A stretch of 11,130 bases of DNA from a virus (taxonomy: Duplodnaviria; Heunggongvirae; Uroviricota; Caudoviricetes): the IMG/VR virus record IMGVR_UViG_2778261303_000003. One strand, written 5' to 3'. Position numbers and translations under genes: made by a program. The notes under the pieces were generated by a model. The model did not search any database. It was not told the origin of the DNA and saw only the letters and a program-made list of their open reading frames with translations. This document shows positions 1 to 10,906 of this stretch, piece by piece (within the stretch, counting starts at the first letter, position 1; every line of letters begins with the position of its first letter).

Positions 1-135
1 ATGATTGAACAAATTAACATCGCTCTTGAGCAAAAAGGGTCCGGGAATTTCTCAGCCTGGGTCATTGAAGCCTGCCGTCGGAGACTAACGTCAGAAAAGA
101 GAGCATATACATCAATTAAAAGTGATGAAGAATGA
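1..135 (+). CDS. ylcI: YlcI-like small phage protein (DUF3950-type as I recall); 44 codons visible, probably 5'-partial because the window starts here
   Basis: Open frame from base 1 to TGA at 133-135, translating MIEQINIALEQKGSGNFSAWVIEACRRRLTSEKRAYTSIKSDEE; matches the C-terminal part of the DLP12 prophage YlcI as I remember it. Position beside ybcW/ybcV is consistent with DLP12 gene order. Confidence 0.55.
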   Translation: MIEQINIALEQKGSGNFSAWVIEACRRRLTSEKRAYTSIKSDEE

Positions 136-299
136 ACATCCCGCGTTCTTCCCTCCGAACAGGACGATATTGTAAATTCACTTAATTACGAGGGCATTGC
201 AGTAATTGAGTTGCAGTTTTACCACTTTCCTGACAGTGACAGACTGCGTGTTGGCTCTGTCACAGGCTAAATAGTTTGAATGATTAGCAGTTATGGTGA

Positions 300-506
300 T
301 CAGTCAACCACCAGGGAATAATCCTTCATATTATTATCGTGCTTCACCAACGCTGCCTCAATTGCTCTGAATGCTTCCAGAGACACCTTATGTTCTATAC
401 ATGCAATTACAACATCAGGGTAACTCATAGAAATGGTGCTATTAAGCATATTTTTTACACGAATCAGATCCACGGAGGGATCATCAGCAGATTGTTCTTT
501 ATTCAT
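300..506 (-). CDS. ybcW: YbcW-like small prophage protein, function unknown
   Basis: 68-aa ORF with ATG at 506..504 preceded by GGAG (7-nt spacer); translation [20 protein letters not shown]... matches the DLP12 YbcW family from memory. Confidence 0.8.
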
Positions 507-791
507 TTTGTCGCTCCATGCGCTTGCTCTTCATCTAGCGGTTAAAATATTACTTCAAATCTTTCTGTATGAAGATTTGAGCACGTTGGCCTTACATACA
601 TCTGTCGGTTGTATTTCCCTCCAGAATGCCAGCAGGACCGCACTTTGTTACGCAACCAATACTATTAAGTGAAAACATTCCTAATATTTGACATAAATCA
701 TCAACAAAACACAAAGAGGTCAGACCAGATTGAAACGATAAAAACGATAATGCAAACTACGCGCCCTCGTATCACATGGAAGGTTTTACCA

Positions 792-1202
792 ATGGCTCAG
801 GTTGCCATTTTTAAAGAAATATTCGATCAAGTGCGAAAAGATTTAAACTGTGAATTGTTTTATTCTGAACTAAAACGTCACAACGTCTCACATTATATTT
901 ACTATCTAGCCACAGATAATATTCACATCGTGTTAGAAAACGATAACACCGTGTTAATAAAAGGACTTAAAAAGGTTGTAAATGTTAAATTCTCAAGAAA
1001 CACGCATCTTATAGAAACGTCCTATGATAGGTTGAAATCAAGAGAAATCACATTTCAGCAATACAGGGAAAATCTTGCTAAAGCAGGAGTTTTCCGATGG
1101 GTTACAAATATCCATGAACATAAAAGATATTACTATACCTTTGATAATTCATTACTATTTACTGAGAGCATTCAGAACACTACACAAATCTTTCCACGCT
1201 AA
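792..1202 (+). CDS. ybcV: YbcV-like prophage protein (DUF1398-type as I recall), function unknown
   Basis: Long ORF 669..1202; I place the start at the ATG at 792 ([11 protein letters not shown]..., 136 aa) because it has a GGAAGG Shine-Dalgarno 8 nt upstream. The upstream GTG at 669 and ATG at 750 lack a ribosome-binding site. Confidence 0.8.
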
Positions 1203-3561: not shown

Positions 3562-4644
3562 ATGAAAAAATTAACAGTGGCAATTTCTGCTGTAGCTGCA
3601 TCAGTACTGATGGCGATGTCTGCTCAGGCAGCTGAAATTTATAATAAAGACAGTAACAAGCTGGATCTGTACGGGAAAGTTAATGCTAAGCACTACTTCT
3701 CCTCTAATGATGCAGATGATGGTGATACTACTTATGCCCGTCTTGGCTTCAAAGGTGAAACCCAAATCAACGATCAACTGACTGGTTTCGGTCAGTGGGA
3801 ATATGAATTCAAAGGCAACCGCGCTGAATCTCAAGGTTCCTCCAAAGATAAAACCCGTCTTGCCTTCGCTGGCCTGAAATTCGGTGACTACGGCTCCATC
3901 GATTACGGCCGTAACTACGGTGTAGCATACGACATCGGTGCATGGACCGACGTTCTGCCAGAATTCGGTGGCGATACCTGGACCCAAACAGATGTATTCA
4001 TGACTGGTCGCACCACAGGTGTTGCAACTTATCGTAACAACGACTTCTTTGGTCTGGTTGATGGCCTGAACTTTGCAGCTCAGTATCAGGGCAAAAATGA
4101 CCGAAATGAAGTAACTGAAGCTAATGGCGATGGTTTCGGTTTCTCAACTACTTATGAGTATGAAGGATTCGGCGTGGGTGCAACCTATGCTAAATCTGAT
4201 CGCACTAATAATCAGGTTATCTACGGTAACAACGGTCTGAATGCTTCTGGTCAAAATGCTGAAGTATGGGCAGCTGGTCTGAAATATGATGCGAACAACA
4301 TCTATCTGGCCACCACCTATTCTGAAACCCAGAACATGACTGTTTTTGGTAATAACCATATTGCCAACAAAGCACAAAACTTCGAAGTAGTTGCACAATA
4401 TCAGTTCGACTTCGGTCTGCGTCCGTCCGTTGCTTATCTGCAATCTAAAGGAAAAGACTTGGGTGCTTGGGGTGATCAGGACCTGGTTGAATATATTGAT
4501 GTAGGTGCAACCTATTACTTCAACAAAAATATGTCCACTTTTGTTGACTACAAAATCAACCTGATTGATAAGAGCGATTTCACGAAAGCATCTGGCGTTG
4601 CTACCGATGATATCGTTGCTGTAGGTATGGTTTACCAGTTCTAA
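3562..4644 (+). CDS. nmpC: OmpC/OmpF-family general porin, prophage-encoded (NmpC/Lc-like moron)
   Basis: 360-aa ORF with a typical signal peptide ([23 protein letters not shown]), porin motifs throughout and C-terminal ...VGMVYQF; sits between Q and the lysis genes in the opposite orientation, as nmpC does in DLP12. Confidence 0.92.

Positions 4645-9891: not shown

Positions 9892-10906
<1,015 letters not shown>

Follow-up and report, generated by a model that had tools for sequence, protein, structure and literature searches.

Among described systems, the right end of phage lambda and the prophage DLP12 of Escherichia coli K-12 come closest to the DNA analysed here, a stretch of 11,130 nucleotides (nt) from a virus of the class Caudoviricetes (IMG/VR record IMGVR_UViG_2778261303_000003), which as a whole is referred to as the window. 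In lambda, the genes follow the order bor, lambdap78, lambdap79, ylcI homologue, and cos, with the same orientation as in the window, and cos and Nu1 are the neighbours of the ylcI/ybcW/ybcV block. The gene order of DLP12 is likewise identical (borD-ybcV-ybcW-ylcI-nohD; b0557-b0560, b4589). Our subject is the spacer between two of these small genes, ybcW on the minus strand and ybcV on the plus strand, which diverge, as the original prediction for this DNA had claimed, across 285 base pairs (bp; positions 507-791). Taken as a whole, the evidence makes it probable that the window begins in a lambda/DLP12 moron region, in which ybcW has the sense of the late operon and a mosaic spacer holds a local promoter controlled by FNR, PdhR, and H-NS.

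Positions 1-1500 correspond to the right end of phage lambda and of the DLP12 prophage, a long-catalogued region that hardly varies and that ranks among the DNA sequenced most often. They share 99.7% nucleotide identity with lambda, from which they differ by a few single-nucleotide polymorphisms (SNPs), and 99% with DLP12. A megablast search matched them in 4087 of 5426 complete E. coli genomes, with at least 80% of the query covered in 991, and several E. coli chromosomes are 100% identical over this length and carry the RefSeq annotation ylcI, ybcW, ybcV, and bor. The gene identities and the spacer signals are therefore already in the literature or in annotation, which leaves little for discovery. 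A cassette at 104-712 and the mosaic joint that it forms within the spacer are new observations, and represent a small addition to a known region.

Regulatory signals in the ybcW-ybcV spacer

K-12 DLP12 is the source of all the published FNR, PdhR, H-NS, sigma70, start-site, and Rho data. Only 3 of the 285 spacer positions differ between that prophage and the window (SNPs at 575, 669, and 735), and both published K-12 sites are identical here. The elements on which the regulatory interpretation depends are as follows.

682-730: invariant block, straddling the mosaic joint at 712/713 and holding the FNR and PdhR boxes
688-701: FNR box TTGACataaATCAT, agreeing with TTGAT-N4-ATCAA at 8 of 10 positions, with its centre at 694.5 and containing the hexamer TTGACA
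714-730: PdhR box AAGAGGTCAGACCAGAT, with the core GGTcagACC at 718-726 and its centre 44 bp upstream from the start site for ybcW
678, minus strand: equivalent of the ybcW-sense start site, a primary start in K-12 Cappable-seq data (U00096.2 578931, plus strand), giving a 172-nt leader

A study of FNR in K-12 by chromatin immunoprecipitation on microarrays (ChIP-chip) listed ybcW as a target, with the site TGTTGATGATTTATGTCAAATATT centred at 578,914.5, which is the reverse complement of window positions 683-706. For PdhR, genomic SELEX (systematic evolution of ligands by exponential enrichment) in K-12 gave a peak between ybcV and ybcW with the sequence AtcTGGTctgACCtcTT, equivalent to window positions 714-730 and matching 10 of 14 positions. 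Deletion of pdhR in K-12 lowered mRNA, measured by quantitative reverse transcription PCR (RT-qPCR), 10.0-fold for ybcV and 8.9-fold for ybcW.

Oxygen enters through the work of Myers et al. (2013), also in K-12, where sequencing after chromatin immunoprecipitation (ChIP-seq) placed a sigma70 peak at 578,910, with an occupancy that rose from 82 to 434 without oxygen (~5-fold). The aerobic/anaerobic expression ratio in the same study was 0.24 for ybcW (~4-fold) and 0.30 for borD. The FNR site was predicted there without a peak for FNR being called in the wild type, and it overlapped an H-NS peak; in a strain lacking hns and stpA, the FNR ChIP-chip signal increased from 0.74 to 1.23. Overexpression of T4 MotB in BL21(DE3) raised ybcV and ybcW more than 1000-fold, in a paper that links MotB to altered H-NS-dependent repression.

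Position 678 was mapped through the K-12 alignment, and the offset was checked against the published coordinate of the FNR site. The corresponding start is a weak one (relative read score, 3.7). No start site for ybcV was found in the published supplementary tables searched, of which the Cappable-seq part covers the plus strand only. The block from 682 to 730 provides a separate line of evidence, as none of its 49 bp varies among the 19 distinct lambda-type spacers, two of which are no more than 85% identical and differ in the flanks. For sequences 15% diverged, 49 nucleotides would stay unchanged by chance with a probability of about 3.5e-4.

These findings, shown in K-12 and transferred to the window by sequence identity, suggest that the control elements of the spacer are the FNR box at 688-701 and the PdhR box at 714-730. 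By the same transfer, sigma70 RNA polymerase would occupy the invariant block, to a greater extent without oxygen, while H-NS would cover it and limit the access of FNR. PdhR, centred at -44 from the start at 678, would then activate ybcW, and a -10-like GATAAT (746-751) might serve ybcV, with FNR located at about -62. The proposal that the spacer carries regulation of its own is thereby borne out, through the sigma70 peak, FNR, PdhR, H-NS, and start-site data from K-12 and not through the three motifs that the original prediction had put forward; a region devoid of promoter activity would be at odds with the sigma70 peak and the start site that K-12 data place within it.

Several points weigh against this reading. 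All regulatory data derive from K-12 DLP12 or lambda, and from genome-scale screens rather than dedicated promoter dissections. By sequence, the FNR match is at chance level (11 sites with at most two mismatches in the window, 8.7 expected), and the PdhR box, although identical here to the one with a published peak and mRNA drops, has four mismatches to the consensus. The FNR box is centred at -16.5 from the start at 678 and not near -41.5, the position of a class II FNR-activated promoter; the position resembles that of a repressor, yet expression is higher in the absence of oxygen. A class II promoter would be compatible with a start near 653, and none is on record. Furthermore, ybcW is a ChIP-chip target with oxygen-dependent expression, yet it appears only in Tables S2, S6, S7, and S12 of Myers et al. 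and not in Table S8, which lists FNR-dependent operons, and no ChIP-seq peak for FNR was called at the site in the wild type. The GATAAT promoter for ybcV is a guess, because no ybcV start site was retrieved. The effect of PdhR could be indirect, and a short tract of recombination, not selection, might account for the invariance of the 49 bp.

From such weaknesses a different explanation could be built, in which the spacer is silent, H-NS-coated junk at the joint, ybcW is a passenger of the late genes, ybcV is decaying after being cut off from the ylcI promoter, and the FNR and PdhR sites are fortuitous. We regard this as unlikely. It is in keeping with the weak matches of both boxes, with the origin of the PdhR box as a relic of coding sequence (described below), with the overlap of H-NS and a site at which no wild-type FNR peak was called, with the low read score of the start, and with the dispensability of p78 and p79, the lambda counterparts of YbcV and YbcW. 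A silent spacer would not be expected, however, to have a sigma70 peak exactly at the site with a 5-fold dependence on oxygen, accompanied by a 4-fold aerobic/anaerobic change in ybcW, nor would it lose about 10-fold of both mRNAs in a pdhR deletion. It also fits poorly with a ybcV that retains an intact open reading frame (ORF), a Shine-Dalgarno sequence, and 99% identity in ~1000 E. coli genomes, and with a 49-bp block that stays invariant where its flanks diverge.

The preferred reading, an FNR-, PdhR-, and H-NS-controlled promoter, must also be set against the model of the original prediction, which drew on an 8-bp inverted repeat at 556-581, a TTGACA hexamer at 697-702, and a tandem repeat at 733-747. 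All three motifs exist, with different boundaries or positions. The two repeats are the following.

555-580: inverted repeat with the arms TCAAATCTT (555-563) and AAGATTTGA (572-580), 9-bp arms and an 8-nt loop, in the ybcW leader
733-741 and 742-750, plus strand: tandem of two exact copies of AAACGATAA

The inverted repeat is thus 9 bp rather than 8 bp long, with the claimed 8-mers at 556-563 and 572-579, which leaves the end at 581 slightly off. The hexamer is found at 688-693, where it forms half of the FNR box, and the tandem runs on to 750. The model would make these motifs an autonomous pair of sigma70 promoters, with TTGACA as the -35 element, the inverted repeat as either an operator or a hairpin in the leader, and the AACGATAA tandem as repeated binding sites, all of it fully separate from late transcription. 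The inverted repeat is indeed somewhat rarer than chance, and the tandem clearly so. In dinucleotide shuffles of the 285-bp spacer, an inverted repeat of at least 9 bp arose in 1.7% (P ~0.017) and one of at least 8 bp in 7.6%, while an exact 9-bp tandem arose in 0.05% (P ~0.0005); on either strand, the free energy of the hairpin is about -9.5 kcal/mol. TTGACA itself is rarer than chance over the whole window, with 3 found and 8.3 expected.

The promoter pair, in contrast, has little to recommend it. No sigma70 -10 element follows TTGACA at 16-18 bp, a consensus scan gave no promoter-like site in 507-791, the hexamer overlaps a ChIP-defined FNR box, and ybcW lies inside the late transcription unit. 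The repeats themselves vary among relatives. The K-12 change A575G breaks the inverted repeat; Tritos and locus L027 (~85-90% identical) have two uncompensated changes in one arm, a 16-nt loop insertion, and an imperfect tandem; and PhiR63_1 and HannyBb have a broken C-G pair in the stem, the loop insertions among these relatives being 8-16 nt long. The tandem becomes AAGCGATAA in K-12, where A735G breaks it, and AAACAATAA/ACACGATAA in L027, and the Qin type lacks it. Across the 19 distinct lambda-type spacers, variable sites fall in the inverted repeat (564, 574, 575, and the loop insertion) and in the tandem (735, 737, 740, 743, and 747).

The description of the region as structured does not hold either, given that the ybcW leader RNA (678 to 500) folds no better than its shuffles (z = -0.82) and that the RNAalifold consensus of the leader lacks the repeat hairpin, with a covariation term of -0.12. 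We consider the model improbable, and with one motif mis-located and the two repeats polymorphic without compensating changes, none of the three stands as a functional element. Because an exact 9-bp tandem occurs in only 0.05% of shuffles, the tandem is a true duplication; duplication by slippage requires no function. Its second copy supplies the -10-like GATAAT, the sole part kept in relatives. The best explanation of the inverted repeat and the tandem duplication is that they are lineage-specific sequence accidents. Two small minus-strand ORFs in the spacer, 592-714 and 542-655, were considered as genes and rejected, as their frames are not kept among relatives, which differ by indels of 1, 8, and 16 nt.

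The mosaic joint and the ybcW cassette

Qin-type prophages contain a related module, nohA-ynfO-ydfO (K-12 b4533, b1549), which like the window's genes lies beside a small terminase gene. Its ylcI homologue, ynfO, is ~93% identical over the first 55-57 residues and its ybcV homologue, ydfO, is ~80% identical; the structure of YdfO is available (PDB 2HH8). Unlike the window, the module has no ybcW cassette, its ynfO product has 77 amino acids (aa) and ends at the window's PdhR box, and gnsB, ynfN, and cspI take the place of bor. In the Qin-type loci (L029-L034, L040, and K-12 Qin), ybcW is missing, and ynfO immediately precedes ydfO on the same strand with a gap of 57 nt. By blastn, these loci match the window only at 1-103 and from 713 to ~1221-1378, and the breakpoints 103/713 recur in seven loci. 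Two features follow from these alignments.

104-712: ybcW cassette, ~610 bp in the lambda/DLP12 type, with ~50 bp in its place in the Qin type
713-733, plus strand: ynfO-type 3' coding relic, E-V-R-P-D followed by TGA, now non-coding, defined from junction alignments

The cassette carries a new 3' end for ylcI, the ybcW gene, the inverted repeat, and the FNR box, the last of these within its final 25 bp. Relative to the Qin type, the left flank is ~94% identical and the right flank ~84% identical over 509 bp. Since ynfO reads through the equivalent of 713-733 and ends in ...Q-V-R-P-D-stop, the core of the PdhR box, GGTCAGACC, is, to judge from the alignment, a fossil of the ynfO codons V-R-P. 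The spacer is therefore a mosaic: positions 507-712 came with the cassette, and positions 713-791 consist of the ynfO 3' relic together with the old ynfO-ydfO spacer. The ybcW gene and ~160 bp of upstream DNA also occur without ybcV, after gnsB and in the late-operon sense, in PhiR63_1 and HannyBb. In evolutionary terms, the cassette would have interrupted a compact pair of the ynfO-ydfO type. Both the joint and the PdhR box had escaped the original prediction.

The position of the invariant block across the joint invites a more far-reaching interpretation, which we offer as tentative. The block at 682-730 may be a composite bidirectional promoter born at the joint, to which the cassette brought the FNR box and in which the end of ynfO became a PdhR site, so that ybcV was rewired and ybcW gained a promoter controlled by oxygen and pyruvate in the prophage state. 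As an extension of this idea, YlcI/YnfO might be an Arc-like repressor of the original operon, and the same joint might be the route by which lambda sheds p79 through Qin.

The latter suggestion relates to a 2026 preprint, which reported lambda p79 as an activator of the Vulcan NADase defence: co-expression of p79 and Vulcan was toxic, and lambda-vir escapers of Vulcan deleted p79, with recombination with Qin as the likely route. The cassette boundaries at 104 and 712 are what a p79-losing swap with Qin would produce, and they would provide a base-pair account of how the Vulcan trigger is lost.

The accessory genes and their surroundings

ORF listing and family scans place four genes at the start of the window, at 1-135 (plus), 300-506 (minus), one ending at 1202 (plus), and bor at 1493-1786. 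The features of the three accessory genes are listed here.

1-135, plus strand: 3' part of ylcI, codons 21-64 and the stop codon; DUF3950, YlcI-YnfO family
236-263: 8-bp inverted repeat GTGACAGA/TCTGTCAC in the spacer between the convergent ylcI and ybcW
300-506, minus strand: ybcW (lambdap79), 68 aa, PHROG 657, late-operon sense
778-783, plus strand: ybcV Shine-Dalgarno sequence GGAAGG, 8 nt before the ATG at 792, invariant in the junction alignment
792-1202, plus strand: core of ybcV (lambdap78), 136 aa, DUF1398, 32% GC, antisense to the late operon
1041, minus strand: equivalent of a Rho-termination region (K-12 NC_000913.3 579345, plus strand), antisense to ybcV

In a 100%-identical genome, the small terminase gene nohD lies ~390 bp past ylcI, and rzpD-rrrD-essD lie past bor. 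The three genes ylcI, ybcW, and ybcV are thus an accessory ("moron") region between the lysis cassette and bor on one side and cos and the terminase genes on the other. This confirms the cargo position that had been proposed for them before the packaging genes were in view, through nohD in the matching genome and cos and Nu1 in lambda. The proposed gene names likewise agree with Pfam and PHROG matches and with the RefSeq annotation of identical DNA. The domain searches suggested at that time assign DUF3950 to ylcI and DUF1398 to ybcV, and leave ybcW without a Pfam family.

The region also resembles a moron in its variable presence and its base composition. Presence varies among collinear relatives, as the ybcW cassette is absent from Qin-type loci and ybcV is absent beside ybcW in PhiR63_1 and HannyBb. 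In most Shiga toxin (Stx) phages, the match is confined to bor or to the first part of ylcI. Base composition deviates, with a GC content of 32% in ybcV, 39% in ybcW, and 40% in the spacer against 49% in the lysis genes. By sequence there is no consensus promoter, and the K-12 sigma70 peak, start site, and RT-qPCR data point to one. A terminator-like hairpin with a T-run follows ybcV at 1259-1294 (from a consensus scan only), and no terminator of their own was found after ybcW or ylcI. Rfam covariance models gave no match in 1-1500, even at E-values up to 1, and PADLOC defence profiles gave chance-level matches only (E 0.001-0.017, partial coverage).

With respect to late transcription, the genes divide by strand: ybcW, the lysis genes, and nohD/Nu1 lie on one strand, and bor, ybcV, and ylcI on the other. 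As ybcW points in the direction of the late operon, an active phage transcribes it along with the late genes, and its product, the one reported to be sensed by the Vulcan NADase, is made during lytic growth. A lambda screen by CRISPR interference (CRISPRi) agrees with this arrangement, in that p79 scores as "essential" though dispensable, for which the authors invoke polarity on the late transcript; p78 was non-essential. The genes ybcV, ylcI, and bor run against late transcription and are AT-rich, and therefore need promoters of their own. Independence from late transcription, which the original prediction had suggested for ybcW and ybcV alike, is consequently reasonable for the antisense ybcV and fails for ybcW, given its late-operon sense and the CRISPRi polarity. 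Since the Rho region is antisense to ybcV, read-through in the late direction without Q should stop before ybcW. In a repressed or cryptic prophage, Rho would accordingly end this read-through antisense to ybcV, and ybcW would depend on the local promoter.

YbcW is acidic (isoelectric point, pI, 4.9) and predicted to be all-helical. It is 100% identical to lambda p79 and matches PHROG 657 with an E-value of 7.5e-48 over 68 of 68 positions; no Pfam family matched. The narrow distribution of p79 is reflected in its presence in 40 phage records. Cappable-seq data for K-12 also contain a stronger start inside ybcW, at window position 410 (minus strand; U00096.2 579199), with a relative read score of 6.5. 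The search for YbcW homologues was flooded with copies, full of errors, of a 3.6-kb lambda control amplicon from Oxford Nanopore and yielded no usable alignment.

That amplicon is part of a wider pattern. Lambda DNA occurs in unrelated assemblies, including Kitasatospora, Bradyrhizobium, Pedobacter, and metagenome-assembled genomes (MAGs), and several of these cases are the 3.5-3.6-kb control amplicon. Copies have been deposited as "plasmids", such as Brevibacillus fluminis pContig2 (3552 bp) and Arcanobacterium hippocoleae plasmid unnamed1 (3566 bp). Error-laden copies lead to thousands of spurious protein "variants" and to frameshifted cluster representatives, and the YlcI search and the genome scan were affected too. 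In "Campylobacter phage CJLB-4" (MW057783.1; 48,361 bp), YbcW is 100% and YbcV 99.3% identical to lambda, at lambda-like coordinates; this record is very probably lambda DNA under another name.

The ylcI gene begins 60 nt before position 1 of the window, so the ATG at position 1 is the internal codon 21. The complete protein has 64 aa, is basic (pI 10.5), and has an Arg/Thr-rich N-terminus. The part within the window matches Pfam DUF3950 (PF13132) with an E-value of 9e-21 (74 bits against a cut-off of 25), and the full YlcI, taken from the identical genome, matches NCBIfam NF041551 with 37.6 bits against a cut-off of 30. Its homologue is unannotated in the RefSeq record of lambda (NC_001416.1, ~48110-48304, complement). 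The convergent pair of ybcW and ylcI has been listed as an excludon, with overlapping transcripts, and the inverted repeat at 236-263 between them is not followed by a T-run on either strand. Cappable-seq starts at K-12 U00096.2 579737 and 579773 lie between ylcI and nohD in the cos region, directed toward the packaging genes and outside the window.

A further explanation concerns ylcI and ybcV together. They, and their counterparts ynfO and ydfO, could form a regulator-effector module, toxin-antitoxin-like or autoregulated, with YlcI as an Arc/Mnt-like ribbon-helix-helix protein and the module split by the ybcW cassette in lambda/DLP12. The tight and co-oriented arrangement of ynfO and ydfO in Qin-type prophages, with the 57-nt gap, is consistent with this, as are the small size, basic character, and Arg-rich arm of YlcI. 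A weak hhalign match places NIRFP...G-S of YlcI on NLRWP...G-R-S of Arc in the expected register, and in the AlphaFold2 (AF2) model of YlcI, the N-terminus is unstructured and two helices come after it, at positions compatible with a ribbon-helix-helix fold. Searches of YlcI for this fold gave no BLASTP alignment, nothing in a PDB profile search, and nothing in Pfam at E-values up to 10, and on balance we find the module doubtful.

YbcV matches Pfam DUF1398 (PF07166, YdfO-like) over the whole profile (1-119 of 119; E 3e-46, 157 bits against a cut-off of 22) and is 99.3% identical to lambda p78. It aligns end to end with YdfO in PDB 2HH8 (E 4e-71), a nuclear magnetic resonance (NMR) structure deposited under the name of a hypothetical protein. 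The sequence of YbcV gave no support for an internal duplication, as 49 of 500 shuffles scored equally well. Only the ATG at 792 remains in frame as a start in every relative, whereas the 177-aa form annotated in lambda, which starts at GTG 669, crosses the mosaic joint and is not conserved. Published observations found for ybcV were limited to altered glycogen on overexpression, transcriptional up-regulation in a sabinene-tolerance study, and a place among the most copper-responsive genes. Overlapping the Shine-Dalgarno sequence and start codon, at 779-793, is a second PdhR-like match, GAAGGTTTTACCAAT, with three mismatches to ATTGGTnnnACCAAT, which is not preserved in Qin-type loci; the window as a whole has more matches of this kind than chance would give (14 found, 6.6 expected), most of them in the porin gene.

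Database labels would make YbcV a virion structural protein: PHROG 413 is labelled "head protein", lambdap78 carries the same product name in RefSeq (NC_001416), and older records give "putative envelope protein". p78 is not known as a component of the lambda virion, whose composition is established. The RefSeq entry states "Predicted by GeneMark". All lambda virion proteins are encoded in the late operon, to which the gene runs antisense; CRISPRi scores it as non-essential, and it is also present in the cryptic prophages DLP12 and Qin, which are tail-less and head-less. The paralogue in 2HH8, moreover, was deposited just as "hypothetical protein ydfO". A structural role is thus extremely improbable, and we rejected it as a label without evidence, at variance with the placement of virion genes in the late operon and with their requirement for plaques. 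The structural or packaging assignment that would have spoken against an accessory role for these genes accordingly did not materialise beyond this label. Two annotations of lambda deserve correction: there is no support for the "head protein" label of lambdap78 or for its 177-aa form, and RefSeq lambda lacks the ylcI homologue.

Beyond the accessory genes, a perfect 10-bp inverted repeat, TATTCCCGGA/TCCGGGAATA, occurs at 1295-1304 and 1350-1359, with 45 nt between the arms. It brackets the bor promoter annotated in HK630 (equivalent to 1336-1362), and its right arm overlaps a -10-like TACAAT. Between the convergent stops of bor and rzpD, a perfect 11-bp inverted repeat with a 4-nt loop (GAGTTGCCCAT/ATGGGCAACTC, 1793-1818) is likely a bidirectional terminator or an RNA-stabilising hairpin. 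An intact porin gene of 360 aa (nmpC/ompC-like; 3562-4644, plus strand) lies between the lysis cassette and a Q-like antiterminator, whereas in K-12 DLP12 nmpC is split by IS5. The whole 11.1-kb window is present in no complete E. coli genome of the collection, the best match having 96.9% identity over 89%. Beyond ~5 kb, it is a mosaic unlike K-12 DLP12 and ACN002, with O/P-like replication genes, an N-6-adenine methyltransferase, and a LexA-family repressor at ~10193-10906.

Comparison with moron genes, defence triggers, and host promoters

The lambda morons bor and lom provide the first point of comparison. Like them, the genes described here are AT-rich, lie within or at the end of late-operon blocks, run antisense to or independently of late transcription, vary in presence, and are probably expressed from the prophage; ybcW departs from this pattern, as it is not independent of late transcription. 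Host phenotypes are known for bor and lom (serum resistance and adhesion), and none is established for ybcV and ylcI.

For the defence-related role of p79, the sensing of phage proteins by Avs-type systems, which recognise the terminase, is the nearest parallel. In both cases, a phage protein triggers the defence, and with Vulcan the phage escapes by losing p79. The triggers differ in nature: the terminase is a conserved core protein, whereas p79 is small and dispensable, an accessory protein with a narrow distribution.

The closest counterparts of the spacer itself are host promoters controlled by FNR and PdhR, with which it shares a box resembling TTGAT-N4-ATCAA, a GGT-N3-ACC core, an oxygen-dependent sigma70 signal, and PdhR-dependent mRNA. 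It differs from them in that both boxes are weak and that the FNR box is masked by H-NS and centred at -16.5 rather than at -41.5 or -61.5, as is canonical. A further difference is that PdhR, known mainly as a repressor, would have an activating effect here. With these differences, the ybcW-ybcV spacer would constitute a clean example of a mosaic joint at which the host transcription factors FNR, PdhR, and H-NS act on the cargo of a prophage.

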